Shown here: in pieces, positions 958-51,333 of the stretch
Layout: each line of letters begins with the position of its first letter
Numbering within the stretch: position 1 is the first letter of the stretch
NCBI GenBank assembly: GCA_947498155.1
Contig: CANMJD010000007.1
Coordinates: 77,703-141,702, forward strand
DNA: 64,000 nt
Source of the DNA: an uncultured Pseudoruegeria sp.
GTDB lineage: Bacteria > Pseudomonadota > Alphaproteobacteria > Rhodobacterales > Rhodobacteraceae
Reading direction: 5' to 3'
The notes under the pieces: model-generated
The model's database searches: none
What the model saw: the letters and a program-made list of their open reading frames with translations, nothing else
What the model was told of the DNA's origin: nothing
Made by a program: the position numbers and the translations under genes

Positions 958-1752
958 ATGAATATTCTACAGCTGCAAGACGTCGCCCTGCACTGGCGCG
1001 AAGAGGGTGATCCAGCGGGCGCGCCGATCGTCTTTGCCAATAGCCTTGGGACAGATATGCGGATTTGGGATAAAATCTTGCCGCTGTTACCCAAGGGCCT
1101 GCGGATTATCCGCTATGATATGCGCGGCCATGGCCTGTCGTCCTGTCCTGATGGCCCCTATGCGATGGGCGCTTTGGTGCGGGATGCAGAGCAGCTTCTG
1201 GATCATTTGCAGATCAGGGATTGTATCTTTGTCGGCCTATCCATCGGCGGTATGGTGGCGCAGGGATTGGCGATAAAACGGCTGGATATGATCCGCGCGC
1301 TTGTGCTTTGCAACACTGCCGCCAAAATCGGTACTCCCGCACAGTGGCAAGAGCGAATGGACACGGTCCGCGCCGGTGGCATCGAGGCCCTTGCCGATAT
1401 CACCATGGAGCGCTGGTTTACCAAAGCCTTTCGCCAGACCCCCGAAGTGACCGGCTGGCGCAATATGGTCACGCGCACCCCGCTCGAAGGGTACCTTGGC
1501 AGCTGCGCAGCGGTTTCCGGCACCGACTACTTTACGCCAACGTCTGGTCTGCGCCTGCCGACATTGGGCCTAGCTGGCAGTGATGACAGCGCCACCCCGC
1601 CTGATCTGGTCCGCGAGACTGTTGATCTTATTCCAGGCAGCATTTTTCAATTAATCCGACGGGCGGGTCACATCCCCTGCGTCGAACAACCTGAACAATT
1701 TGCCGAATACTTAGGCGATTTTATCACGGGTACAGGCCATCTTTCCGACTAA
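958..1752 (+). CDS. pcaD: alpha/beta hydrolase, 3-oxoadipate enol-lactonase-like
   Basis: Track ORF 853-1752. The conserved part begins at ATG 958 (MNILQLQDVALHWREEGDPAGAPIVFANSLGTDMRIWD...RYDMRGHGLS). It has a GLSIGG nucleophile elbow. The gene symbol is tentative. Confidence 0.7.
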   Translation: MNILQLQDVALHWREEGDPAGAPIVFANSLGTDMRIWDKILPLLPKGLRIIRYDMRGHGLSSCPDGPYAMGALVRDAEQLLDHLQIRDCIFVGLSIGGMVAQGLAIKRLDMIRALVLCNTAAKIGTPAQWQERMDTVRAGGIEALADITMERWFTKAFRQTPEVTGWRNMVTRTPLEGYLGSCAAVSGTDYFTPTSGLRLPTLGLAGSDDSATPPDLVRETVDLIPGSIFQLIRRAGHIPCVEQPEQFAEYLGDFITGTGHLSD

Positions 1753-1843
1753 ACTGTCCATCATAAGAATGACTTCGCCCAAAAATCGTCAAGGCCGTCA
1801 GAAGTTTGCTTGACATATGGCCCAGTCTGTCGTGCGCTGGGGT

Positions 1844-3265
1844 ATGACAAAACGCCCAGATTTTTTTAATGAGATGATTGATGGCGGTTCGATCCGGCCA
1901 GCCTATCAAAAAATCACCCAATGGTTCGACAGTCAGGGCGAAGAAACGCTTGCCCTGAAAAAGGCCGAAGCAGAGACCCTGTTTCGTCGGATCGGTATCA
2001 CTTTTGCGGTTTATGACGATACCGGCAATACCGAACGCCTGATCCCGTTCGACCTGATGCCGCGCGTCTTTACCGAACGCGAATGGAGCACTCTGGAACG
2101 CGGTGTGAAACAGCGCAGCCGCGCCCTGAATGCTTTTCTGTGGGATGTGTACCACCGAGGTGAAATCGTGCGCTCTGGCCGCATTCCGGCGGATCTGGTC
2201 TATAAAAACGCCGCCTATGAACCCTGTGTTGCCGGTATCGCTCCGGCGCTGAACATCTATTCCCATATTGTCGGTACCGATCTGGTGCGCACCGGACTTG
2301 ATGAGTTCTATGTGCTCGAAGATAACTGCCGCACCCCGTCTGGCGTGTCCTACATGCTGGAAAACCGCGAGATCATGATGCGCATGTGTCCGGAGCTGTT
2401 CCGCAGCGCCCGCATCGCGCCGGTGGACGGCTACCCCGATATGCTGCGCAAAACCTTACACGAGGTCGCGCCGGTCAAATGCGATGGAGAGCCGACAGCC
2501 GTCATTCTGACGCCGGGGGCGTTTAACTCGGCTTATTATGAACATTCTTTCCTTGCTGATCAGATGGGTCTCGACCTTGTCGAGGGTCAGGATTTGTTTG
2601 TCGACGGTGATTTTGTCTACATGCGCACCACGCGCGGTCCGCAGCGGGTGGATGTGATCTATCGTCGGATTGATGACTCTTTCCTTGATCCGCTGTGCTT
2701 TCGACCGGATTCCATGTTGGGCGTACCCGGATTGATGAATGTTTACCGCTCTGGCGGCGTGCAGATTTGCTCTGCCCCCGGTGCTGGCGTGGCGGATGAC
2801 AAAGCCATCTATACCTATGTGCCCGATATGGTCCGGTTTTATCTTGGCGAAGAGCCAATCCTGAAAAACGTGCCCACCTGGCGCTGTGGCGAACAGGATT
2901 CCTACAAATATGTGATGGAAAATCTGGCGGATCTCGTGGTCAAAGAGGTCCATGGCTCCGGCGGATACGGCATGTTGGTCGGACCGGCATCGACCAAGGA
3001 TGAAATTGCCTCCTTTGCCGAGCGCATCCGCAAGAATCCGCATAATTATATCGCCCAACCTACCCTTGCGTTGTCCACCAACCCGACATTCGTCGAGAGC
3101 GGGTTAGCCCCGCGCCATGTGGATCTGCGCCCCTATTGCCTGATGGGCAAAGAGGTTCGGCTGACCCCCGGTGGCTTGACCCGCGTGGCCTTGAACGAAG
3201 GTTCATTGGTTGTGAACTCGTCGCAGGGTGGCGGCGTCAAAGACACTTGGATTGTGGCGGATTGA
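1844..3265 (+). CDS. circularly permuted type-2 ATP-grasp protein (COG2308-like)
   Basis: Track ORF 1817-3265. The family-typical N-terminus MTKRPDFFNEMIDGGSIRPAY starts at ATG 1844. A TTGACA hexamer at 1810-1815 makes the 1817 start less likely. Conserved body includes YVLEDNCRTPSGVSYMLENR. First gene of the four-gene cassette. Confidence 0.8.
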   Translation: MTKRPDFFNEMIDGGSIRPAYQKITQWFDSQGEETLALKKAEAETLFRRIGITFAVYDDTGNTERLIPFDLMPRVFTEREWSTLERGVKQRSRALNAFLWDVYHRGEIVRSGRIPADLVYKNAAYEPCVAGIAPALNIYSHIVGTDLVRTGLDEFYVLEDNCRTPSGVSYMLENREIMMRMCPELFRSARIAPVDGYPDMLRKTLHEVAPVKCDGEPTAVILTPGAFNSAYYEHSFLADQMGLDLVEGQDLFVDGDFVYMRTTRGPQRVDVIYRRIDDSFLDPLCFRPDSMLGVPGLMNVYRSGGVQICSAPGAGVADDKAIYTYVPDMVRFYLGEEPILKNVPTWRCGEQDSYKYVMENLADLVVKEVHGSGGYGMLVGPASTKDEIASFAERIRKNPHNYIAQPTLALSTNPTFVESGLAPRHVDLRPYCLMGKEVRLTPGGLTRVALNEGSLVVNSSQGGGVKDTWIVAD

Positions 3266-3266
3266 T

Positions 3267-4217
3267 ATGCTGAGTAGAACCGCAGAAAGCCTATACTGGA
3301 CCTCCCGCTATATCGAGCGCGCTGAAACCACGGCCCGCTTGCTCGAAGTTGCCTATCGCATGTCGCTCACCCCCAATAGCAGCGGTGGCCATGCCAATGA
3401 ATGGGCCTCTATTCTGGCCGCCGCCGGGGTGACCGCCACCTTTGCTGAAACCGGACAAGAGCCGGATGCCGAGAACGTCACCAAATTCATGTTGTTTGAC
3501 GATCTCAACCCGTCCAGCATCAAGAATTGCATCCGATCCGCACGGGAAAATGTCCGCAGCGCCCGCCCCGCTTTGACAAGCGAAGTTTGGGAAACCCTCA
3601 ACGGTGGTTATTTACAGTTTAACGAGCTGGAAAACGGACGTGCCTCGGCCCGAGAGCTGTTGCCGATGTGTGATTGGACCAAGAGTCAGGCCGCTGCTGT
3701 GCGCGGCAGCTTTGAATCAACGCAGTTGCGTAATGAAGGTTATGATTTCTTTAATCTGGGCTATTACATCGAGCGCGCCGACAACACTGCACGGCTTTTG
3801 GATGTAAAATACTACGTGCTGCTGCCGACCATCGATATGGTAGGGGGGGGGGTGGATCAGTATCAATGGTCCACCCTGTTGCGCGCCGTCTCGGCCCGCC
3901 GTGCCTATCATTGGACCTATAGCGGGGATTATTCTCCGGAAAAAATCGCCCATTTCCTGATCCTGAACCCGTCAACACCACGGTCGCTGCTGCATTGTAC
4001 CGAGATGATCGACTTCCACCTGAGCCGCCTTGCGCGGGCTTCCGGCAGCCGTAGTCTGGCCAATCGTCAGGCCATGACGGTCTATGGAAACCTTGTCGAA
4101 ACCGACATCAGAAGCATCGTCTCGGACGGGCTTCATGAATTTCTGACCGATTTTATCGCTGAAATCCGCAAGCTGGATGAAGCAGTAAACCGGTCCTATT
4201 TGTTCTGGGGGCAATAA
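3267..4217 (+). CDS. alpha-E domain protein (COG2307/DUF403-like)
   Basis: Track ORF 3228-4217. ATG 3267 lies 1 nt after the upstream stop. The signature is duplicated: SLYWTSRYIERAETTARLLEV and FNLGYYIERADNTARLLDV. Confidence 0.8.
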   Translation: MLSRTAESLYWTSRYIERAETTARLLEVAYRMSLTPNSSGGHANEWASILAAAGVTATFAETGQEPDAENVTKFMLFDDLNPSSIKNCIRSARENVRSARPALTSEVWETLNGGYLQFNELENGRASARELLPMCDWTKSQAAAVRGSFESTQLRNEGYDFFNLGYYIERADNTARLLDVKYYVLLPTIDMVGGGVDQYQWSTLLRAVSARRAYHWTYSGDYSPEKIAHFLILNPSTPRSLLHCTEMIDFHLSRLARASGSRSLANRQAMTVYGNLVETDIRSIVSDGLHEFLTDFIAEIRKLDEAVNRSYLFWGQ

Positions 4218-5044
4218 TGCGTCTGACCATCGAACACACCACCCGCTATTCCTATGATCAGCCGCAACGGCGGATATCCCAAAGCCTGCGCATGGTGCCT
4301 GCCTCCTTTGAGGGCCAAAGGGTACTTGACTGGGAGATCTCCTGCGAGGGCGGCACAATCGGGGCCGAATTTACCGATGGCGCTGGCGATGAGGTGAAGA
4401 CCCTAACCGTTTCCGGTCCAGTGGAGCAAATTGAAATTGTGGTGCGTGGCACCGTTGAGACCGCGGACACCACTGGCATTTTGAAAAAACACAAAGAGGT
4501 GATTCACCCGACGGTCTATCTGCGCGATACGCGCCTAACCGATCCTGATGGCGGTATCCGCGTGATTGCGGCTACTGCACGCGACTCCTACCCCGACGAC
4601 CAATTGGGGCTGGCCCATGAGCTTGCACGCCAAACCGCGGAAAGGGTTGTCTATACCCCCGGCACCACGGATCAGGACGTCACCGCCACGCAGGCGCTAG
4701 AGGCCGGGATGGGCGTCTGTCAGGATCAGGCCCATGTGTTGATCTCTCTGGCCCGCTGCGCAGGTCTGCCTGCCCGCTATGTCACCGGCTATTTGCATTC
4801 CACCAGCGATGGGGCCTCGCATGAGGCCAGCCACGCCTGGGCAGAGGTTTTTGTCAAAGACATCGGATGGGTCGGTTTTGATCCGGCCAATACCTGTTGT
4901 CCTGACGAACGGCATATTCGCCTTGGATCGGGGCTTGACGCCCTAGAGGCTGCGCCTGTACGAGGGATCAGTTTTGGCAGCGGTGAAGAGACAATGGACT
5001 TTTCGCTTTCCGTGTCTCAGACCTCTTCGCAAAGCCAACAATAA
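4217..5044 (+). CDS. transglutaminase-like cysteine protease/ligase family protein
   Basis: The ATG shares 1 nt with the upstream TAA (TAATG). The Cys-His-Asp set is intact: GMGVCQDQAH, SHAWAEVF, GFDPAN. Confidence 0.8.
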   Translation: MRLTIEHTTRYSYDQPQRRISQSLRMVPASFEGQRVLDWEISCEGGTIGAEFTDGAGDEVKTLTVSGPVEQIEIVVRGTVETADTTGILKKHKEVIHPTVYLRDTRLTDPDGGIRVIAATARDSYPDDQLGLAHELARQTAERVVYTPGTTDQDVTATQALEAGMGVCQDQAHVLISLARCAGLPARYVTGYLHSTSDGASHEASHAWAEVFVKDIGWVGFDPANTCCPDERHIRLGSGLDALEAAPVRGISFGSGEETMDFSLSVSQTSSQSQQ

Positions 5045-5065
5045 TATCGGAAAGAGCGCGCGCGC

Positions 5066-5818
5066 ATGACCTACTGCGTCGGATTAATGCTGAAAGAAGG
5101 ACTTGTTCTTCTGTCTGATACCCGCACCAATGCGGGGATCGACAATATCTCTTCTTATCGGAAAACCTTCACCTTCGAGGAACCCGGAGAGCGGGCCATT
5201 GTGATCATGACGGCGGGCAGCCTGTCTGTAACCCAGACCGTGATCGCTAAACTGCAAGAGGCCATCGAGGACCCGGACGCAACACCTGCGACCTCGGTAA
5301 TGCAGGCCAATAGCATGCTGGGCGTGGCCGAGATCGTTGGCAACATGCTTTCGAGCGTGGCACAGGAAATTCGGGCAAAGATGAACAGCATGCAGCAATC
5401 TGCCTCTGCCAGCATGATCGTGGCCGGTCAACGCAAGGGCGGCACCATGCGGCTGTTTTTGATCTACCCCGAGGGCAACTTTATCGAGGCTACCGAAGAC
5501 ACGCCTTATATCCAGATCGGCGAACATAAATACGGCAAACCGATTCTGGATCGTGTGATCACCACCGACACCCCGATCAATGAAGGCCGTCTTGCGGTTT
5601 TACTTTCGATGGACAGCACCCTGCGTTCTAACCTCTCTGTTGGCATGCCGCTGGATTTGACGGTGATCAAGGCGGATGAATGCCGGATCAACGAGCGCCA
5701 GCGCATCGAAGAGGGCGACGATGAATATCGGGCCCTTTCCGATGAATGGTCCAATGCCCTACGCGATAGTTTTACGACAATCCGCAACAAGCTGATAGAG
5801 CACGACCCAGCGCTATAG
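5066..5818 (+). CDS. Anbu-type proteasome beta-subunit homologue (Ntn hydrolase, COG3484-like)
   Basis: N-terminus MTYCVGLMLKEGLVLLSDTRTNAG, with Thr directly after the initiator Met. GGAAAGAG RBS upstream. Last gene of the cassette. Confidence 0.8.
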   Translation: MTYCVGLMLKEGLVLLSDTRTNAGIDNISSYRKTFTFEEPGERAIVIMTAGSLSVTQTVIAKLQEAIEDPDATPATSVMQANSMLGVAEIVGNMLSSVAQEIRAKMNSMQQSASASMIVAGQRKGGTMRLFLIYPEGNFIEATEDTPYIQIGEHKYGKPILDRVITTDTPINEGRLAVLLSMDSTLRSNLSVGMPLDLTVIKADECRINERQRIEEGDDEYRALSDEWSNALRDSFTTIRNKLIEHDPAL

Positions 5819-5943
5819 TTGCGATCGCCCCTCCTTTGGCCGCTGCCAGAGGCTGGCGTTGCACCTTCCCAAAGCCACTTCTGCCCCATACTGTGTAAGG
5901 GTTCTTGTTGTTTGGTATTTTTCACTCAGAAAGGTAGTCCCCT

Positions 5944-6618
5944 GTGTCCTCGATCGACTGGCTTCCAATTTTCCGGGAGTTTATCACACTCTTGGTGGTG
6001 ATCGATCCTGTGGGGACGATCCCCGTATACCTCTTTGCCGTTGCCAATGTGCCTGCGCATTTGCACCGTCGCTTTGCGTTTCGCGCTGTGAGTATTGCGA
6101 CGCTTGTTCTGTTGGCGTTTCTGGTTGGGGGGCAAGTTGTCCTTGAAACCCTTGGCTTACATCTTGGCTCTTTTCAGATAGCAGGCGGTATCATCCTGTT
6201 TTTGTTTGCGCTTTCGATGATCTTTGGCGACTCCAAGCCGCAAACCGAGATCGCAGACGCCGAGCGCGATCACCTGTCCGGTGCTGTATTTCCCTTGGCG
6301 ATGCCATCCATAGCCTCCCCGGGCGCTATGTTGGCGATTGTCATCTTGACTGAGAATAGCGCCAATAATGTCGCCGACCAGACGATTACTGCCGCGCTTT
6401 TAATACTTGTGCTGCTGTTGACCCTCGCGCTGCTGCTGGCGGCGTCCTTCATCCATCGGCTGATCGGCAATACAGGAGCCTCTGTTATTTCGCGGGTCAT
6501 GGGAATCATTTTGGCAACGATTGCAGTCGATGCAATACTTGGCGGGTTTGATACGCTCAATCTTGTGGACATTGCCCCCATTGAGACCCCAAGTGCGCTG
6601 ATCGAAACCGTAGAATAG
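5944..6618 (+). CDS. MarC family (UPF0056) integral membrane protein
   Basis: GTG start. MSSIDWLPIFREFITLLVVIDPVGTIPVYLF followed by repeated hydrophobic spans typical of the MarC family. Confidence 0.75.
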   Translation: MSSIDWLPIFREFITLLVVIDPVGTIPVYLFAVANVPAHLHRRFAFRAVSIATLVLLAFLVGGQVVLETLGLHLGSFQIAGGIILFLFALSMIFGDSKPQTEIADAERDHLSGAVFPLAMPSIASPGAMLAIVILTENSANNVADQTITAALLILVLLLTLALLLAASFIHRLIGNTGASVISRVMGIILATIAVDAILGGFDTLNLVDIAPIETPSALIETVE

Positions 6619-6688: not shown

Positions 6689-8302
6689 TTAAGCTTTGCC
6701 CTTTTCAGTCGTTTTCTCCGCAACGGGAGGGATTTTCGGGATTTCAGGGTCGCCCTCATAATGCGGCGACATGATCTGCACCCCGTTTTCGGCGAAAACA
6801 TCCAGAATGTGGCTATGCAATTCAGACAAGATTTTCTGCATATATTCACCGCGTGTGGTGAACCCGTTGACTTGATAGTTCACCGCAAAATCGCCAAGCC
6901 CTGTGCGCAGCACAAAAGGGGGCGGCGTCTTTTTGATATAGTGGGTGCGGGAAAGCGCCTCCAGCAGTAACGCCTCCACCTTTTCCTGTGGCTCATCATA
7001 GCCGATACCGACGGTCGTATGGACCATCAGGCCACGTCCATCAATCTTGGTGGAATAGTTGATCACTTCGGAATTGAGCATTTGCGCATTGGGCACCGAG
7101 ATCAATTCGTTCTTCAGCGACTTTATATAGGTCTCCATCAGTTTGATCGCGACGACATCACCGGTGTGATTGCCGACTTTAATCCGGTCACCGATATTGG
7201 CGCTGCGCCGATACAGGACAAAGAGCCCAGCCATGGCGTTTGAGACCACAGAATTAGAGCCCATGGAAACCATCAATCCAAGCAGGATCGAGACCGCCTG
7301 AAAGGCCTGCGAGGAAGAGCCCGGAATATAGGGATAGCCCAAGATCAGCGCAAAAATAACCAACAGACCGCGCAGAATGTTAAAGGTCGGCCAGATCCAA
7401 TGCGCCTCGAACCCGTCAAAAGACAGGGTACCGGCCTCGATGTTATCAAAGACATTGCGCAAAAGGCGCAGCAGGTAGCGCGTGGTAAAATAGATCACCA
7501 GAAGCGTGACGAAATTTGGTGTATATCCGACGATCGACTTCAAAAGATCAAAAATCGGGTCGCTGATATAGGTGATCAGAATGGTGGCGATCGGGCGTGT
7601 TTCCACAAAGGACAACAGCACAAAAGACACGTAGTAATACACGGCCAAAAGGATCAGGCCCAAGATAAACAGCCGGACCATGACACTGATAAACTCAGAG
7701 ATGGCGCGGCCACGGATGATCTTGCTGGTGGCGGCCTGTATCTGTTTTAGCCGTTTTTCTGTTGTACGGCGGACAAAATCAGGCGCTTTCCGGCGCAGCA
7801 ACAAAAGCACATACATTGCCGCCACAAAAAGGACCGTCCATCCGGCAATTCGCGACAGGCTTTCCATCCGCGCGTCGGTGGTGCGCGCACGGCGGAATTC
7901 TAAAATGGCTGCTTTGATCGCAAGCCCATTGATCTGGGCCAGCAGCGGCAAATCGATGAATTCCAGCTCCGCGTCTTCGGGGATGAAAAACGCGACCTGT
8001 GAGCCATTTATCTGGATGCTGTATCCAAGGGCTTTATCCTCGACAACGAGGTCAATCTGGTCTTGATCACCAGCCCGTGCGACGGCTTCGATTTGGTCAA
8101 TAATCCGGTCGGCACGTTTCTGGGCCGGATAGGACTGGGTACCCCGAACGGAAAACAAGTGCTGACCATCGATAACAACATCTCCGATGCCCCCGTTAAG
8201 CTGCCCGCTTCCATCCGGCGCTCCATCGGTCTGCGCCTGTGCAACAGCCCCAAGGGCACCCCATAACATCACTGACAAAACAGCCAAAATCCGGCGCAGC
8301 AT
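6689..8302 (-). CDS. mechanosensitive ion channel (MscS family) protein with periplasmic N-terminal domain
   Basis: Signal-like N-terminus MLRRILAVLSVMLWGALGAVAQA, several TM spans, and the MscS beta-domain motif GDRIKVGNHTGDVVAIKLMETYIKSLKNELISVPN. Confidence 0.8.
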   Translation of the reverse strand: MLRRILAVLSVMLWGALGAVAQAQTDGAPDGSGQLNGGIGDVVIDGQHLFSVRGTQSYPAQKRADRIIDQIEAVARAGDQDQIDLVVEDKALGYSIQINGSQVAFFIPEDAELEFIDLPLLAQINGLAIKAAILEFRRARTTDARMESLSRIAGWTVLFVAAMYVLLLLRRKAPDFVRRTTEKRLKQIQAATSKIIRGRAISEFISVMVRLFILGLILLAVYYYVSFVLLSFVETRPIATILITYISDPIFDLLKSIVGYTPNFVTLLVIYFTTRYLLRLLRNVFDNIEAGTLSFDGFEAHWIWPTFNILRGLLVIFALILGYPYIPGSSSQAFQAVSILLGLMVSMGSNSVVSNAMAGLFVLYRRSANIGDRIKVGNHTGDVVAIKLMETYIKSLKNELISVPNAQMLNSEVINYSTKIDGRGLMVHTTVGIGYDEPQEKVEALLLEALSRTHYIKKTPPPFVLRTGLGDFAVNYQVNGFTTRGEYMQKILSELHSHILDVFAENGVQIMSPHYEGDPEIPKIPPVAEKTTEKGKA

Positions 8303-10343: not shown

Positions 10344-11621
10344 ATGATGAACAAACTTCTCGCTACTGCTGCTGTTGCGACCGTAATGGGCTCTGCCGCC
10401 TATGCTGAATGTGCTGACCCGATCAAAGTTGGCGTCTTGCACTCACTGTCCGGCACCATGGCGATCTCTGAAACCACCCTCAAAGACACGATCGAAATGC
10501 TGGTCGACACTCAGAATGCTGCCGGCGGCGTCTTGGGCTGTGAACTGGAAGCCGTTGTTGTTGACCCTGCGTCCGACTGGCCCCTGTTTGCTGAAAAAGC
10601 CCGCGAGCTTCTGAGCGTCCACGAAGTTGACGTGATCTTCGGCAACTGGACTTCCGTGTCTCGTAAATCGGTTCTGCCAGTCATCGAAGAGCTGAACGGC
10701 ATGCTGTTCTACCCTGTTCAGTACGAAGGCGAAGAAAGCTCCAAAAACGTCTTTTACACAGGTGCTGCCCCCAACCAGCAGGCCATCCCTGCAACAGATT
10801 ACTTCCTTGAAGAGCTGGGCGTAGAGAAATTCGCGCTGCTGGGCACAGACTATGTCTACCCCCGCACAACCAACAAAATCCTTGAGCAGTACCTGAAAGA
10901 CCAAGGCATTGCCGAAGAAGATATCTTTGTAAACTACACACCTTTCGGTCACTCCGACTGGTCCAAAATTGTTGCTGACGTTGTTGCACTGGGTGAAGAC
11001 GGCAAAAAAGTCGGCGTGATCTCCACCATCAACGGCGACGCAAACATCGGCTTCTACAAAGAGCTGGCCGCTCTGGGTGTATCTGCGGATGATATCCCTG
11101 TGGTTGCCTTCTCCGTGGGTGAAGAAGAGCTTTCCGGTCTGGACACAACCAACCTTGTGGGCCATCTGGCGGCTTGGAACTACTTCCAGTCTGCCGAAGG
11201 TGAAGCCAACGAAGCATTCATCGCCGCTTGGAAAGAGCGCATGGGCGAAGAGCGTGTGACCAACGACCCAATGGAAGCCCACTACATCGGCTTTAACATG
11301 TGGGTGAATGCGGTAACCGATGCGGGTACAACCGATGTCGACGCAGTTCGCACAGCGATGTACGGCCAGACCTTCCCGAACCTGACAGGCGGCACAGCTG
11401 AAATGCTGGTCAACCACCACCTGTCCAAGCCGGTTCTGATTGGTGAAATCCAGGACGACGGTCAGTTCGACATCATCTCCCAGACTACAGAAGTACCGGG
11501 CGATGCATGGACAGACTTCCTGCCAGAAAGCGCTGTTCTGAAATCTGACTGGAAAGACCTCGGTTGCGGCATGTACAACACCGAGACTGAATCCTGCGTT
11601 CAGCTGAAATCCAACTACTAA
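10344..11621 (+). CDS. urtA: urea ABC transporter substrate-binding protein
   Basis: Signal peptide followed by IKVGVLHSLSGTMAISETTLKD...AGGVLG, which is UrtA-type. It heads a five-gene urt operon. Confidence 0.9.
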   Translation: MMNKLLATAAVATVMGSAAYAECADPIKVGVLHSLSGTMAISETTLKDTIEMLVDTQNAAGGVLGCELEAVVVDPASDWPLFAEKARELLSVHEVDVIFGNWTSVSRKSVLPVIEELNGMLFYPVQYEGEESSKNVFYTGAAPNQQAIPATDYFLEELGVEKFALLGTDYVYPRTTNKILEQYLKDQGIAEEDIFVNYTPFGHSDWSKIVADVVALGEDGKKVGVISTINGDANIGFYKELAALGVSADDIPVVAFSVGEEELSGLDTTNLVGHLAAWNYFQSAEGEANEAFIAAWKERMGEERVTNDPMEAHYIGFNMWVNAVTDAGTTDVDAVRTAMYGQTFPNLTGGTAEMLVNHHLSKPVLIGEIQDDGQFDIISQTTEVPGDAWTDFLPESAVLKSDWKDLGCGMYNTETESCVQLKSNY

Positions 11622-11646
11622 TCGTCGATTGTTCTAATCGATACGC

Positions 11647-11673
11647 GAAGGGGGCTACGGCCCCCTTCACTTT
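11647..11673 (+). terminator. intra-operon hairpin after urtA (partial terminator/attenuator)
   Basis: GAAGGGGGC-tacg-GCCCCCTTC, a 9-bp stem, followed by ACTTT. Confidence 0.55.
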
Positions 11674-11691
11674 CCGCGGGCAGGAAATACC

Positions 11692-13650
11692 ATGACAAAT
11701 CGACTGACAACACTCTGTATGGCGATTGCCATGCTGCTGACGGGTCTGTGCGCCGCCATTGCACAAGACCGTGACATCCCCTCCATTTTGCAAGAACACG
11801 CCGCGATCATCGCCAAAGGCTCCCGCAAGACCATAGAGCCCGCGATCGTCGATCTGCGCGACAGCGGGCAGGTTGACGCCCAAATGGTGCTCGAGGCATG
11901 GCAGGCCAAGGAACTTTGGCAGCGCAAGGCAGATGGTCAGTTTTTCACCACCACCAAAAACGAAGACAATAGCTATACGCTCTTTGATGTGATCACCGGT
12001 TCAGAGGTCGGCACGGCAGATAAAAAAGAGCTCAAGCAAATTAAACCGAATTCCGGTATCCGCGGCATGATCGGCGCGGCATTGGTCCAGTTCCAGCTGA
12101 TGGATGCGGACCCTGCCAAACGCCTTGATGCGCTGACCGCGATTGACCGAGACCCCAATCCGACCCATTTGCCCGCCCTGCGCGCTGCCATCGACGCCGA
12201 ACCTGACGCCGACATCAAAGAAACCAAAATCCGGCTGGAACGGCTTTTGACGATTGCCTATGGCGCGGATGAGGCAGAACGTGTTGCTGCAATCGAAAGC
12301 TTTTCCGACGCGCTCAGCGTGGATGTGCGCGCGAAGCTCAACCCGATCCTTGCCACCACCCGTGTTGCCACGGCCACCAAATCCACGGCCAATATCGCCG
12401 CACAACTGACCCCCGGCACGGACCTCAGCAAAGAAGACGCCTATGCGCTGCTGGTTGCAGCCGACCTTGCCCCTGCCGCACCGACACAGGATGAAATCCG
12501 TCTTGCCTTAGGCGATAACATCATCGACGGCCGCGTTGGCGGGCAACCGATTGCCACGCTGAACACCATCGAGGGGCGCGAATTCGCATATGAGGCGCTG
12601 GCCGATGATGGCCTTGTACCGCCGCTCGTCACCGCAGATGAGATGCAATGGGCGATCGAGGATCACCTGTTCTATGACGTCTATGATGAGCCCTCCAAAG
12701 CCGTCACCGATGCCGCCGAAACCACCTTGCAAAGCATCAACACCCGCGTTGGCTTTAATCAGGCGCTGGACCTCGGACTGGACGGGCTATCACTGGCTTC
12801 GATCTACTTTCTGGCCGCCATCGGTCTGGCCATCACCTTTGGTGTGATGGGTGTGATCAACATGGCCCATGGTGAATTCATTATGATGGGCGCTTACACC
12901 GGCTATGTGGTGCAACAGTTTATCACCGACTACACGCTCTCGATCATCGTCGCACTGCCTCTGGCCTTTGGTGTGACTTTTGCCGCCGGTGTAGCGATGG
13001 AACGTCTGGTGATCCGCCACCTGTATCACCGTCCGCTGGAAACCCTGCTGGCCACCTTCGGGATTTCGGTCGCCCTGCAACAGATCGCCAAAAACATCTT
13101 CGGCACACAGGCCCGCCCGCTGACAAGCCCCGCTTGGCTGGACGGTGCATGGGTGCTCAATGACGTGGTATCGATCAGCTACATCCGCATCGCCATCTTT
13201 GTACTGGCGCTGATCTTTTTGACCCTGCTGCTGTTCATCCTCAATAAAACCCGCCTCGGACTCGAAGTCCGCGCGGTCACCCAAAACCCCCGCATGGCGG
13301 CCTCAATGGGCATTAACCCCGATAAGATCAACATGCTGACCTTCGGCCTTGGCTCCGGTATCGCCGGTATCGCCGGTGTCGCCATTGGGCTCTTTGCCAA
13401 AGTCACCTCGGAATTGGGCAGCGACTATATCGTGCAAAGCTTCATGACCGTGGTTGTCGGAGGCGTCGGCAATATCTGGGGCACCCTCGCTGGTGCAACA
13501 ATGATCGGCGGGCTGCAAAAAGGGATCGAGTTCCTGAACCCCTCCAACACCCTTGCCGCCCAAACCTATATGATCATCTTCATCATCATCTTCATCCAGT
13601 TCCGGCCCCGAGGCATTATCGCCCTCAAGGGCCGCGCGGCCGGAGATTGA
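11692..13650 (+). CDS. urtB: urea ABC transporter permease with about 360-residue N-terminal periplasmic extension
   Basis: The C-terminal half is a LivH-type permease (IYFLAAIGLAITFGVMGVINMAHGEF...). The N-terminus has a signal peptide followed by a soluble region. Confidence 0.85.
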   Translation: MTNRLTTLCMAIAMLLTGLCAAIAQDRDIPSILQEHAAIIAKGSRKTIEPAIVDLRDSGQVDAQMVLEAWQAKELWQRKADGQFFTTTKNEDNSYTLFDVITGSEVGTADKKELKQIKPNSGIRGMIGAALVQFQLMDADPAKRLDALTAIDRDPNPTHLPALRAAIDAEPDADIKETKIRLERLLTIAYGADEAERVAAIESFSDALSVDVRAKLNPILATTRVATATKSTANIAAQLTPGTDLSKEDAYALLVAADLAPAAPTQDEIRLALGDNIIDGRVGGQPIATLNTIEGREFAYEALADDGLVPPLVTADEMQWAIEDHLFYDVYDEPSKAVTDAAETTLQSINTRVGFNQALDLGLDGLSLASIYFLAAIGLAITFGVMGVINMAHGEFIMMGAYTGYVVQQFITDYTLSIIVALPLAFGVTFAAGVAMERLVIRHLYHRPLETLLATFGISVALQQIAKNIFGTQARPLTSPAWLDGAWVLNDVVSISYIRIAIFVLALIFLTLLLFILNKTRLGLEVRAVTQNPRMAASMGINPDKINMLTFGLGSGIAGIAGVAIGLFAKVTSELGSDYIVQSFMTVVVGGVGNIWGTLAGATMIGGLQKGIEFLNPSNTLAAQTYMIIFIIIFIQFRPRGIIALKGRAAGD

Positions 13651-13667
13651 TCCCATGATCCTTACAC

Positions 13668-13720
13668 AACTTTGTTCCAGAAATATCCCGGGGGGATACG
13701 GGGGGCTGGCCCCCCGAGCC
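13668..13720 (+). repeat. REP-like intergenic repeat, copy a
   Basis: AACTTTGTTCCAGAAATATCCCGGGGGGATACGGGGGGCTGGCCCCCCGAGCC. It shares its head and its G/C hairpin with copies at 32072, 44622 and 61271. Confidence 0.7.
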
Positions 13721-13740
13721 TTCCAGAAAGCACTGCAGTC

Positions 13741-14976
13741 ATGAACCGCTCCTTTTTTGCCAAAAACCCGTCTGTGCTGATCTTTATCGGCTGTCTGGCG
13801 CTCTTCACCCTTGGGGTGACCCTGCTGTCCGAAGCCTTCGGCACCGGTGTTATCTCTACCAGTTTTGTCAAAACACTGGGCAAAACCCTGTGCCTTTGCC
13901 TGATCGCCATCGCCATGGATCTGGTCTGGGGCTATTGCGGTATCCTGTCCCTTGGACACTTCGCCTTCTTCGGGCTGGGGGGCTATATGATTGGCATGTG
14001 GTTGATGTATGCGCGCACCGCGCAAATCGTCACCACCTCTATGGCCGAAGCCGATATTCCACCCACCGCCCAAGAGGTCACTGATGCCATCGGCAACCAG
14101 ATCTTCGGCGTGGTCGGGGGCAGTGATTTCCCGCTGATCTGGAGCTTTGCCGACAGCCTGACCATTCAGCTGGCCTTTGTGGTGCTGGTGCCCGGTGCCT
14201 TGGCGCTGGTCTTTGGCTGGCTTGCCTTCCGCTCGCGGGTGACCGGTGTTTATTTGTCGATCCTGACCCAAGCCATGACGCTGGCCCTGTCGCTCTATCT
14301 GTTTCAGAACGACTCCGGGCTACGCGGCAACAACGGCCTTTCGGGCCTGCAAAACATCCCCGGCGCCGAGGATATCCCGCAATCGGTGATCTCGCTCTAT
14401 TTCTTCTGGGCCTCTGCCCTTGCGCTGATGCTTGGCTATCTGCTGGCCGCTTGGGTGGTCTCGGGCAAATTCGGTTCTGTCATCCGTGGCATCCGCGACG
14501 ACGAAGCCCGCGTACGCTTTCTGGGCTATTCGGTCGAAGGCTATAAGCTCTTTGTCTTTACCCTGACAGCCGTTATCGCCGCCATCGCCGGAGCGCTGTA
14601 TTACCCGCAGGCCGGCATCATCAATCCGGCGGAAATCGCCCCGATTGCCTCGATCTATCTGGCGGTCTGGGTCGCCATCGGCGGGCGCGGCCGCATCTAT
14701 GGTGCGGTGATCGGTGCGGCGGTTGTTTCCCTGCTGTCCAGCTGGTTCACCGGCGGGCAGGTTCCCAGCATCAACCTCGGTTTTTATACCATTAACTGGG
14801 TCGATTGGTGGCTGGTGCTGCTGGGCTTCTCTTTTGTGCTGGTCACGCTCTTTGCTCCCCAAGGCATTGGCGGTCTGTTTGACCAACTGGTCCGTAACCG
14901 TGCCACCCCCCAACGCGGCGGTGCGCCCCTTGGCCCCGATGCCAGCGCCCTACAAGAAAAGGAGGCGGATAAATGA
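13741..14976 (+). CDS. urtC: urea ABC transporter permease
   Basis: Track ORF 13672-14976 would translate the repeat element. ATG 13741 (MNRSFFAKNPS) is more likely. LivM-type permease body. Confidence 0.85.
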   Translation: MNRSFFAKNPSVLIFIGCLALFTLGVTLLSEAFGTGVISTSFVKTLGKTLCLCLIAIAMDLVWGYCGILSLGHFAFFGLGGYMIGMWLMYARTAQIVTTSMAEADIPPTAQEVTDAIGNQIFGVVGGSDFPLIWSFADSLTIQLAFVVLVPGALALVFGWLAFRSRVTGVYLSILTQAMTLALSLYLFQNDSGLRGNNGLSGLQNIPGAEDIPQSVISLYFFWASALALMLGYLLAAWVVSGKFGSVIRGIRDDEARVRFLGYSVEGYKLFVFTLTAVIAAIAGALYYPQAGIINPAEIAPIASIYLAVWVAIGGRGRIYGAVIGAAVVSLLSSWFTGGQVPSINLGFYTINWVDWWLVLLGFSFVLVTLFAPQGIGGLFDQLVRNRATPQRGGAPLGPDASALQEKEADK

Positions 14977-15713
14977 GCACGCTTCTCGAAGTCTCTGGTG
15001 TCTCTGTGTCCTTTGACGGCTTTAAAGCCATCAACAACCTGTCCTTTCAGATCGGGTCTGCCGAACTGCGGGCGGTGATCGGGCCAAATGGAGCTGGCAA
15101 AACCACCTTTATGGATATCGTCACCGGCAAAACCCGCCCCGATGAGGGACGGGTGATCTGGGGCGAGAAATCCATGAACCTGTTAAAAATGAGCGAAGCC
15201 AAAATCGCGCAGGCTGGGGTGGGACGTAAATTCCAGCGCCCCACCGTGTTCGAGGACCAAAGCGTCTTTGACAATCTGCTGATGGCACTGAAAAAAGATC
15301 GCGGACCGGTTGAGGTGCTGTTTTACAAACGCAGCGGTGAGGACATTACCCGCGTTGAAGAAATGGCCAGCCAGATCGGGCTGCAAGAGCAATTGCACCG
15401 GACCTCGGGCGAGCTGTCCCATGGTCAGAAACAATGGCTTGAGATTGGCATGTTGCTGGCACAGGAACCGCGCCTTTTGCTGGTGGATGAACCTGCTGCC
15501 GGTATGACACTGGCAGAACGCGAACATACCACCGACCTTTTGCGCGAAGCGGCCAAAACCCGCGCCGTTGTTGTGGTTGAACACGATATGGAATTTGTGC
15601 GCCGGTTGAACTGCAAAGTCACCGTGCTGCACGAAGGCTCAGTTCTGGCTGAAGGCTCTATCGATCATGTCACCAAAGATCCGCAAGTGATCGAAGTATA
15701 TCTGGGACGCTAA
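14973..15713 (+). CDS. urtD: urea ABC transporter ATP-binding protein
   Basis: ATGA overlap with urtC. Walker A GPNGAGKTT and ABC signature LSHGQKQWLEI. Confidence 0.9.
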   Translation: MSTLLEVSGVSVSFDGFKAINNLSFQIGSAELRAVIGPNGAGKTTFMDIVTGKTRPDEGRVIWGEKSMNLLKMSEAKIAQAGVGRKFQRPTVFEDQSVFDNLLMALKKDRGPVEVLFYKRSGEDITRVEEMASQIGLQEQLHRTSGELSHGQKQWLEIGMLLAQEPRLLLVDEPAAGMTLAEREHTTDLLREAAKTRAVVVVEHDMEFVRRLNCKVTVLHEGSVLAEGSIDHVTKDPQVIEVYLGR

Positions 15714-15716
15714 AAC

Positions 15717-16412
15717 ATGCTGCAAACCAAAGATCTTACCCTGCATTATTCGGGCTCCCAAATCCTGTATGGCATCGACGTCACCGCCGAAGTCGGTCAG
15801 GTCACCTGTGTCATGGGCACAAACGGGGTGGGCAAAACCAGCCTGCTCAAGGCGCTGTCAGGCACCCATCACCGTACTGGCGGACAATATTTGCTGGATG
15901 GTGAGGACATCGCCAAACCCCCAGCCCACGTCCTTGCCCACAAGGGCGTCGCCTATGTGCCCCAGGGGCGCGATGTATTTCCGCTGATGACGGTGCGTGA
16001 AAATCTGGAAACCGGCTTTGCCTGTCTGCCGCGCTCCGAACATTTGGTTCCGGATCAAATCTTTGAACTGTTTCCGGTGCTCAAGGAAATGGAGGGCCGT
16101 CGCGGCGGTGACCTTTCCGGCGGGCAGCAACAACAGCTTGCCATTGGCCGCGCCCTGATTGCGCAGCCCAAACTGCTACTGCTGGATGAACCCACCGAAG
16201 GCATCCAGCCCAATATCATCCAGCAAATCGGGCGCGTGATCGAATTTCTGCGCGACGAAGGCAAAATGGCCATCATCCTTGTCGAGCAATATTTTGAATT
16301 CGCCTACGGGCTGGCGGATGAATTCTTTGTTCTGACCCGTGGCGAAGTCTCTTTGTCAGGCGCTAAGAGTGAACTGGCCAAATCCGACGTCATGGCCTCG
16401 GTTTCGGTTTAA
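15717..16412 (+). CDS. urtE: urea ABC transporter ATP-binding protein
   Basis: Walker A GTNGVGKTS, signature LSGGQQQQLAI, Walker B LLLLDEP. Confidence 0.9.
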   Translation: MLQTKDLTLHYSGSQILYGIDVTAEVGQVTCVMGTNGVGKTSLLKALSGTHHRTGGQYLLDGEDIAKPPAHVLAHKGVAYVPQGRDVFPLMTVRENLETGFACLPRSEHLVPDQIFELFPVLKEMEGRRGGDLSGGQQQQLAIGRALIAQPKLLLLDEPTEGIQPNIIQQIGRVIEFLRDEGKMAIILVEQYFEFAYGLADEFFVLTRGEVSLSGAKSELAKSDVMASVSV

Positions 16413-37886: not shown

Positions 37887-37961
37887 GCTCCGTTCGTCTA
37901 TCGGTTAGGACGTCAGGTTTTCAACCTGAAAAGAGGGGTTCGATTCCCCTACGGAGTACCA
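37887..37961 (+). tRNA. tRNA-Glu (anticodon UUC)
   Basis: 75 nt: GCTCCGT acceptor stem, TTCGTCTATCGGTTAGGAC D arm, anticodon loop TTTTCAA, GGTTCGATTCC T arm, and an encoded CCA. Confidence 0.95.
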
Positions 37962-51258: not shown

Positions 51259-51333
51259 TGGTACTCCGTAGGGGAATCGAACCCCTCTTTTCAGGTTGAA
51301 AACCTGACGTCCTAACCGATAGACGAACGGAGC
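51259..51333 (-). tRNA. tRNA-Glu (anticodon UUC), identical inverted copy
   Basis: Its reverse complement is identical at 75 of 75 positions to 37887-37961 by manual alignment. Confidence 0.95.

Follow-up and report, generated by a model that had tools for sequence, protein, structure and literature searches.

The locus analyzed here raises the question of what joint task could be served by a putative ATP-dependent ligase, an Alpha-E protein, a transglutaminase-like enzyme and a proteasome homologue encoded by four successive genes on one strand. These genes occupy positions 1844-5818 of a 64,000-nucleotide (nt) stretch of DNA from an uncultured Pseudoruegeria sp. (contig CANMJD010000007.1), hereafter called the window. 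Our analysis indicates that the region is, very probably, an intact and canonical Anbu-1 operon of a Rhodobacterales genome. In the order already published, the four genes encode a circularly permuted (cp) ATP-grasp protein, an Alpha-E protein, a transglutaminase-like enzyme with Cys, His and Asp and finally Anbu, all with full-length domains and intact catalytic residues. Together with the intergenic region that precedes them, they are laid out as follows.

1753..1843, + strand: upstream intergenic region of 91 nt, candidate promoter/leader (alignment with the related loci L081 and L082)
1844..3265, + strand: cpATP-grasp protein (COG2308-type), 473 residues (Pfam, PDB 3n6x)
3267..4217, + strand: Alpha-E protein (COG2307 / DUF403), 316 residues (Pfam PF04168)
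4217..5044, + strand: transglutaminase-like papain-fold protein (Bact_transglu_N plus Transglut_core), 275 residues (Pfam)
5066..5818, + strand: Anbu (COG3484), Anbu-1 type, 250 residues (solved Anbu chains)

The cassette is already known, and it is very common. Valas and Bourne described Anbu together with COG2307, COG2308 and COG1305 in 2008 (PMC3235984), and Iyer et al. predicted a peptide-synthesis/ligation or tagging system in 2009, as that work is cited in PMC5666114 and PMC6376114; the latter source also credits Valas and Bourne with proposing the degradation of tagged substrates. Anbu structures were solved in 2017-18 (5lox, 5loy, 5nyf/g/j and 5nyw), that of the P. aeruginosa protein by Fuchs et al. 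2017 (PMC5666114), peptidase activity was not found (Piasecka et al. 2018, PMC6376114), and the function of Anbu was still stated as not known in 2021 (Fuchs et al., PMC8665760). An earlier sequence-only reading of the same DNA had described this background as a neighborhood noted by comparative genomics, with structures at hand and no substrate or physiological role demonstrated, which is accurate, the neighborhood dating from publications of 2008-2009 (PMC3235984, PMC5666114, PMC6376114). It had also singled out the cassette as the best candidate in the window for a mechanistically uncharacterized system; the gap in function is indeed real, but the novelty was overstated, since this is a textbook copy of a common cassette, devoid of unusual gene content, fusion, regulator or substrate-indicating neighbor.

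As for the family assignments made in that reading, all four stand, on the strength of profile searches scoring far above curated cut-offs and of matches to solved structures. The product of the first gene is a full-length circularly permuted ATP-grasp protein and a putative ATP-dependent carboxylate-amine ligase. It matches the Pfam family CP_ATPgrasp_2 over the entire model (positions 1-374 of 374; E = 7.3e-164, 545.6 bits versus a cut-off of 32), as well as CP_ATPgrasp_1 (E = 3.2e-142), and it aligns across residues 8-473 with PDB entry 3n6x (E = 2.6e-193), which was deposited under the name "putative glutathionylspermidine synthase." We place the start of this gene at 1844 because an upstream in-frame ATG at 1817 is not kept in the nearest relative, whereas the codons TATGACAAAACG beginning at ATG 1844 are, and because the 3n6x alignment begins only at residue 8.

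The Alpha-E protein matches PF04168 from end to end (model positions 1-294 of 294; E = 8.6e-94, 315 bits versus a cut-off of 20.8). The family is very large, with 8767 clusters at 50% identity found at E <= 1e-3, and it has no experimental structure, our protein finding no sequence match in the PDB. A confident AlphaFold2 model is all-helical (pLDDT 87.4, pTM 0.87), and a Foldseek search of the PDB with it returned no fold neighbor, the best E-value being 0.64 and no TM-score exceeding 0.27. The two halves of the protein form an internal tandem duplication, with residues 15-88 matching residues 170-248 (E = 5e-10) and the motif YxERAxxTARLL present once in each half; the corresponding Glu-Arg pairs, E17-R18 and E169-R170, do not vary at all in two sets of orthologues, of 49 and 70 sequences. 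Fusions of ATP-grasp and Alpha-E, which would point to a physical complex, were absent among the top 150 representatives, all of which are ~300-380 residues long. The C terminus of Alpha-E was considered in two further roles, and rejected in both. It does not behave as a Pup-like tag, since the terminal residue varies (Q, V, R, L, K and others) with no conserved Gln/Glu, and in the related loci it is the last two residues, behind a conserved YLFG, that are variable. Nor is YLFG a general docking tail of the HbYX type in the family, since it is confined to the clade and is not kept among 111 diverse representatives of the Alpha-E family.

The third protein matches Transglut_core (E = 9.8e-24, 84.2 bits versus a cut-off of 23) and Bact_transglu_N (E = 1.9e-18, 67.4 bits versus 27), while its PDB matches are weak (3isr, 2.2e-9; 6g49, 1.6e-6) and concern proteins named only putatively. 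The sequence-only reading had pointed to three motifs as carrying the catalytic Cys, His and Asp, and all three are there, GVCQDQAH with Cys168, SHAWAEV with His206 and GFDPAN with Asp222, the three residues being at least 97% conserved in 73 sequences. The protein therefore shows the papain-like core and the Cys-His-Asp triad that characterize Transglut_core/COG1305. The literature reports no assay for this subfamily, be it of transamidation, deamidation or peptidase activity.

The identity of the fourth protein is equally clear. Solved Anbu chains align with residues 1-240 at E-values of 3e-72 (5loy), 1.2e-65 (5nyj), 4.3e-65 (5nyf), 8.5e-63 (5nyw) and 3.1e-59 (5lox), and the Pfam Proteasome family is matched at 2.9e-7 (30.8 bits versus a cut-off of 22.4). 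In contrast, the NCBIfam model for archaeal proteasome beta subunits, TIGR03634, scores only 23.2 bits against a cut-off of 224, which indicates that the protein is not a 20S subunit. As the sequence-only reading had remarked, the protein begins with MTYCVG, so that Thr is the second residue and a propeptide is lacking, and it continues with SDTRTNAG at residues 17-24. All of 13 aligned sequences have this Thr2, and in a larger set of 81 it is at least 97% conserved, a level shared by D18, K33 and G51 (precursor numbering), the counterparts of the proteasome-type catalytic residues Asp17, Lys32/33 and oxyanion Gly (mature numbering) defined in PMC5666114. Fuchs et al. 2017 (PMC5666114) separated two subtypes by the residues of the S1 pocket, T20/F30/T48/L52/S55 in Anbu-1 and I20/A29/R46/R50/T53 in Anbu-2. 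With T20/Y30/T48/L52/T55 (mature numbering), the window protein has the Anbu-1 pattern, with two conservative substitutions, and not that of the basic Anbu-2. In the sequence alignment, residues 205-240, where the Anbu-specific C-terminal helical extension (H5) would lie, match the C-terminal parts of 5loy and 5nyj without gaps, and the C-terminal tail is ~9 residues longer than in most relatives. These relatives are numerous, at least 8000 in a database clustered at 90% identity, the closest being 93% identical, followed by proteins from a Pseudoruegeria sp. metagenome-assembled genome (MAG; 83%) and from P. aquimaris (80%), which places the window in Rhodobacterales.

The raw sequence bears out the coordinates of the four genes and the three junctions that had been read from it. 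The stop codon of the ATP-grasp gene (TGA, 3263-3265) is separated by 1 nt from the ATG of the Alpha-E gene at 3267; the Alpha-E and transglutaminase-like genes overlap in a TAATG (4215-4219), where stop and start share the single nucleotide 4217; and 21 nt lie between the TAA that ends the transglutaminase-like gene (5042-5044) and the ATG of anbu at 5066. The total space between the four genes is thus 22 nt. A ribosome-binding site had been claimed before 5066, and the sequence GGAAAGAG is indeed found at 5049-5056, 9 nt 5' of the anbu ATG; it is plausible but weak as a Shine-Dalgarno candidate. No promoter- or terminator-like sites were seen in the gaps between the four genes, and the sites that the scan did find were no commoner than in shuffled sequence. 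The list of open reading frames (ORFs) contains no tag-sized ORF within or adjoining the cassette, no paralogue of any of the four genes occurs elsewhere in the 64-kb window, and a compositional anomaly or recent transfer was ruled out by a GC content of 52-58% throughout.

How far this arrangement is shared was determined by a genome scan that yielded 80 loci, mostly from Rhodobacterales, plus Thalassospira, a Lysobacterales MAG and others, of which 74 had enough upstream sequence to be tested by tblastn with the window proteins. In 69 of these 74 loci (93%) the whole set of four is present, colinear and on the same strand, and likewise in four additional loci (L081-L084). An Acidiferrobacterales MAG and Sphingosinicella have the cassette with unrelated flanks. 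The genes flanking the cassette in the window, a pcaD-like gene and a MarC gene, accompany it in none of the 80 scanned loci, flank recurrence being seen only in the nearest relative. Colinear co-conservation at this level, maintained as the flanks change, argues for a functional linkage of the four genes. In the remaining five testable loci (L022, L034, L046, L054 and L074), anbu (at ~7001-7720) stands alone, the 7 kb upstream of it containing none of the other three genes. The sequence-only reading had made its case depend on profile hits, on the conservation of Thr2 and of the Cys-His-Asp residues and on co-conservation of the genes, and it holds on each count: the hits are strong, the residues are at least 97% conserved in 73-81 orthologues, and the great majority of loci are colinear. 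Among the four proteins, ATP-grasp is the most constrained, with ~73% identity in the related loci versus ~50% for Alpha-E and the transglutaminase-like protein. Its identity to the window protein is 69-78% in 68 of the 69 four-gene loci (40% in L035), and 237 of its 473 positions are at least 97% conserved.

The same loci refine the claim that the four genes are tightly coupled, which applies best to the first three, the anbu junction being looser in relatives and sometimes interrupted. The median gap between the ATP-grasp and Alpha-E genes is 4 nt and the Alpha-E and transglutaminase-like genes overlap in 59 of 68 loci, whereas the median gap before anbu is 36 nt and measures 25 nt or less in just 8 of 70 loci. 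In seven loci, moreover, inserts of 0.8-2.2 kb lie after the transglutaminase-like gene, before anbu. Taken together, the junction statistics and the inserts suggest that the first three genes form a tighter unit to which anbu is appended as a fourth, which agrees with the published occurrence of the other genes in genomes without Anbu (PMC3235984, PMC5491218).

In L045, L051 and L066, the genes that intervene between the transglutaminase-like gene and anbu are unrelated or lie on the opposite strand. Genomes of Tabrizicola and Pseudotabrizicola-like bacteria have at this junction a fifth ORF, of ~200-220 codons and on the cassette strand, at the following positions.

6279-6908 in L010, cassette strand: fifth ORF
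6279-6872 in L021, cassette strand: fifth ORF
6242-6907 in L031, cassette strand: fifth ORF

A gap of similar size (0.9 kb) precedes anbu in L038. The encoded protein begins with MALAYDFDIF (MALNYDFDMF in L021), has a hydrophobic C-terminal stretch and gave no Pfam match at E-values up to 0.1. Perhaps it is an additional component of the operon, confined to this lineage.

The 91 nt upstream of the cassette are a candidate promoter or leader region. In the alignment with L081 and L082, only the nearest relative shares two blocks, GCTTGAC (1808-1814) and TCGTGCGCTG (1830-1839). At 1810-1815 the window has TTGACA, which as a -35 box would put the transcript start very near ATG 1844; no recognizable -10 element stands at the proper spacing from it, and there is no sigma-70 consensus pair in 1753-1843. 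A sigma-54/NtrC-type promoter, expected from Pseudomonas and Burkholderia, was rejected as well, with no -24/-12 match before 1844. A search for an upstream motif common to the loci was equally negative, no 7- or 8-mer reaching 30% of them, and a riboswitch or leader RNA was discounted after an Rfam search of 1500-6200, at E-values up to 1, gave zero matches.

Which mechanism would account for a conserved unit of this composition? The analysis establishes which domains the proteins contain, which residues are conserved, that the genes are conserved together and that the first three are coupled more tightly; beyond this, we infer a common substrate, an order of steps and a role for Alpha-E. The reading that we prefer, to which we assign a probability of roughly 35-40%, is ATP-dependent amide ligation combined with two amide hydrolases, acting on a modified peptide or protein substrate in starvation-linked turnover. 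The first three genes would provide a self-contained core. Within it, the ATP-grasp enzyme would depend on Alpha-E as an obligate partner and would spend ATP on converting a carboxylate into an acyl-phosphate, which it would then join to an amine, so that a peptide or protein of the cytoplasm would acquire an amide or isopeptide bond. The Yersinia orthologue of the ATP-grasp protein does free orthophosphate from ATP (PMC6376114). The amide or peptide bonds of the modified substrate would then be cleaved by the transglutaminase-like enzyme, through its Cys nucleophile, and by Anbu, through a Thr1 exposed upon Met removal in a multi-subunit open ring; the two hydrolases would trim the added group or take it off, or else break down the polypeptide that carries the mark. 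In Pseudomonas aeruginosa Anbu (Pa-Anbu), epoxomicin and MG132 modify Thr1, whereas a T1A mutant stays unmodified (Fuchs et al. 2017, PMC5666114), and published Anbu assemblies are open split-ring (lock-washer) dodecamers, as seen by crystallography, small-angle X-ray scattering and electron microscopy (PMC5666114, PMC6376114, PMC8665760). The setting would be peptide or protein turnover in nutrient limitation, nitrogen above all, since the operon is the most upregulated gene set of nitrogen-limited P. putida (PMC3235984), an Anbu-less three-gene cluster in Burkholderia is NtrC/sigma-54 dependent (PMC5491218), and predicted sigma-54 regulons are enriched in COG3484 (PMC12316311).

Several observations weigh against this reading. 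The literature searchable to mid-2026 reports no substrate, product, phenotype or function for any member of the cassette, and 2026 preprints on S. pneumoniae Rrp and M. tuberculosis Rv1722 name Anbu or Rv2411c/Rv2567 only as relatives or negative controls. Anbu proteins from several species were inactive on casein, on many aminomethylcoumarin (AMC) peptides and on a peptide library (PMC5666114, PMC6376114). No stable complex was detected among the four Yersinia proteins, and the ATPase activity of the ATP-grasp protein was not stimulated by Anbu (PMC6376114). The link to nitrogen limitation is borrowed from other lineages, since neither the window nor its Rhodobacterales relatives show sigma-54 enrichment upstream, where weak matches were found in 19 of 68 loci (28%) versus a background of 21%. 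Lastly, an ATP-grasp protein as highly conserved as this one could just as well have an invariant small molecule, and not a protein, as its substrate.

That last point leads to the main rival, a metabolite pathway in which no protein is tagged, which we regard as possible if somewhat unlikely. Here, ATP-grasp and Alpha-E would make a small gamma-glutamyl-type, glutathione-like or oligopeptide metabolite, or capture an amine through amide formation, and the transglutaminase-like enzyme and Anbu would be amidases that process or recycle the product. The name under which 3n6x was deposited points this way, as does the contrast in conservation between the ATP-grasp protein, with half of its positions near-invariant, and its partners, a pattern typical of an invariant small substrate. 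The peptide-synthesis proposal of Iyer et al. 2009, in the form cited in PMC5666114, is also in line with such a pathway. The first three genes are widespread without Anbu (PMC3235984; for the Burkholderia cluster, PMC5491218), the junctions of 1, -1 and 21 nt leave no space for a tag gene, and some Ntn (N-terminal nucleophile) hydrolases cleave non-peptide amides (PMC6376114). What argues for polypeptide substrates is the architecture of Anbu itself, since Pa-Anbu has a proteasome-like substrate channel with an S1 pocket, a Thr1 that binds peptide-mimetic inhibitors and a 12-site ring (PMC5666114). Phosphate release by the Yersinia ATP-grasp protein, furthermore, is not raised by glutamate or glutamine (PMC6376114). 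Two M. tuberculosis proteins, Rv2411c and Rv2567, which we take to be homologues of the window ATP-grasp protein, also bear on this point. In the single metabolite assay at hand, they made no GABA-trehalose (GABA, gamma-aminobutyric acid), a result that counts against the metabolite pathway for that one compound and is informative for it alone.

An unlikely alternative is true tagging and degradation, akin to pupylation or ubiquitylation, in which ATP-grasp and Alpha-E would attach a tag, the transglutaminase-like enzyme would activate or remove it as a deamidase or isopeptidase, and Anbu would degrade the tagged protein. Its appeal is that one conserved unit unites a proteasome homologue with a ligase and with a Cys enzyme of the isopeptidase type. 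The mycobacterial Pup-proteasome system recycles amino acids. Induction of the Anbu operon in nitrogen limitation (PMC3235984) would parallel this, and tagging is what Iyer et al. 2009, and for degradation Valas and Bourne, are cited as proposing (PMC6376114). The cassette, however, has no tag-sized ORF within or beside it, Alpha-E has no conserved C-terminal Gln/Glu, and its YLFG tail is not family-wide. No AAA+ unfoldase was the best family match of any gene called between 853 and 20102, where the only ATP-binding proteins are UrtD and UrtE of a urea transporter. The operon proteins, moreover, showed no interactions (PMC6376114), and many lineages keep the first three genes without Anbu. The boldest version, a third bacterial counterpart to ubiquitylation and pupylation, is slightly more doubtful still: ATP-grasp/Alpha-E would mark proteins with an amino acid or peptide in starvation, the transglutaminase-like enzyme would edit or remove the mark, and Anbu would degrade marked proteins only.

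Nitrogen scavenging without any tag, suggested in PMC6376114, appears improbable. Anbu would degrade proteins non-specifically in nitrogen starvation, the transglutaminase-like enzyme would deamidate Gln to release ammonia, and the ATP-grasp protein would play a separate assimilatory or regulatory part. Nitrogen-limitation induction and NtrC dependence in other proteobacteria (PMC3235984, PMC5491218, PMC12316311) speak for it, but it leaves unexplained the near-obligatory pairing of ATP-grasp with Alpha-E and the overlap of the Alpha-E and transglutaminase-like genes. Anbu, besides, does not cleave generic substrates (PMC5666114, PMC6376114), a nitrogen-type promoter was not detected before the cassette in the window, and of the 80 other loci just 2 have a urea transporter gene within 7 kb. 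Incidental adjacency of four unrelated genes, for which the sole argument is that no physical complex has been demonstrated (PMC6376114), is effectively refuted by colinear co-conservation across several orders with changing flanks, by reading frames that overlap or nearly abut, and by the co-regulation reported in other bacteria (PMC3235984, PMC5491218).

The surroundings of the cassette in the window include the following genes.

853-1752, + strand: PcaD-type 3-oxoadipate enol-lactonase, upstream neighbor (TIGR02427, 307 bits versus a cut-off of 255.85)
5944-6618, + strand: MarC/NAAT-family transporter, downstream neighbor
10344-16412, + strand: complete urea ABC transporter, urtABCDE (five NCBIfam models above cut-offs)

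The MarC gene is absent from the same position in the nearest relative (L081), and therefore looks like a local insertion or loss. The urea transporter, for which the UrtB-UrtE models are equivalogs and the UrtA model is typed "exception," begins 4.5 kb downstream of the cassette, past the MarC gene, an MscS-like gene, a YscW/META gene and a divergent LysR gene; L081 has the matching flank order as far as its sequence reaches, namely to the first two genes of the transporter. With urtA within 7 kb of the cassette only in L045 and L060 among the other loci, proximity is too weak to be a general link, and the closeness of the transporter does not bear on function. Elsewhere in the window, two tRNA-Glu(UUC) genes with equal Rfam scores, at 37887-37961 (+ strand) and 51259-51333 (- strand), are inverted with respect to each other ~13 kb apart and could be a duplication bracketing an invertible or inserted segment.

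The Anbu operon is among the more widespread conserved bacterial cassettes without an assigned function, and Anbu stands at the base of proteasome evolution, so learning what Anbu acts on would be important for the understanding of proteolysis and starvation physiology in bacteria. The window locus is a clean reference example of this operon; it is no more tractable than the Pseudomonas or Yersinia copies and does not by itself advance the question of function. What may aid experimental design in a tractable host are the tighter coupling of the first three genes, the duplicated Alpha-E fold without a solved relative, the lack of a tag ORF and the lack of a conserved terminal Gln/Glu in Alpha-E.

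How does the locus compare with known systems? The closest is the Anbu operon of proteobacteria and cyanobacteria, known from P. aeruginosa, P. putida, Yersinia bercovieri and Hyphomicrobium sp. MC1 (COG2308-COG2307-COG1305-COG3484), with which it shares families, order and strand, a Met-Thr start without propeptide, the residues Thr1/Asp17/Lys32/Gly50, an S1 pocket of Anbu-1 type and the lack of an AAA+ partner. The differences are not substantial; they consist in having Tyr/Thr instead of Phe/Ser at S1 residues 30/55, in a C-terminal tail ~9 residues longer than in most relatives and, compared with the nitrogen-regulated Pseudomonas and Burkholderia loci, in showing no detectable sigma-54-type promoter upstream. 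Anbu-less clusters such as BCAM1233-1236 of Burkholderia cenocepacia have the same first three genes, in the same order and as tightly coupled, and may carry an extra large transglutaminase-domain protein, whereas the window has Anbu 21 nt further on. M. tuberculosis Rv2411c-Rv2409c is presumably another cluster of the same three genes without Anbu. The 20S proteasome and HslVU have in common with the window the Ntn-hydrolase beta-subunit fold and the Thr1/Asp17/Lys33 set (PMC5666114). In contrast to them, the ten neighboring genes called to 20102 (upstream, the pcaD-like gene only) match neither a proteasome alpha subunit nor HslU or another AAA+ unfoldase, and the window Anbu has no propeptide and falls below the TIGR03634 cut-off, while published Anbu assemblies are open split rings, inactive on standard substrates (PMC5666114, PMC6376114, PMC8665760). 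From the Pup-proteasome system (PafA, Dop, Pup, PrcAB) the locus is set apart by its ligase, which belongs to the ATP-grasp family whereas that of Pup is glutamine-synthetase-like, and by having neither a small tag gene, nor an unfoldase, nor a conserved Alpha-E C-terminal Gln/Glu. The likeness between the two is conceptual: both would combine an ATP-dependent carboxylate-amine ligase and an amidase with a proteasome-family hydrolase, possibly in the service of starvation.

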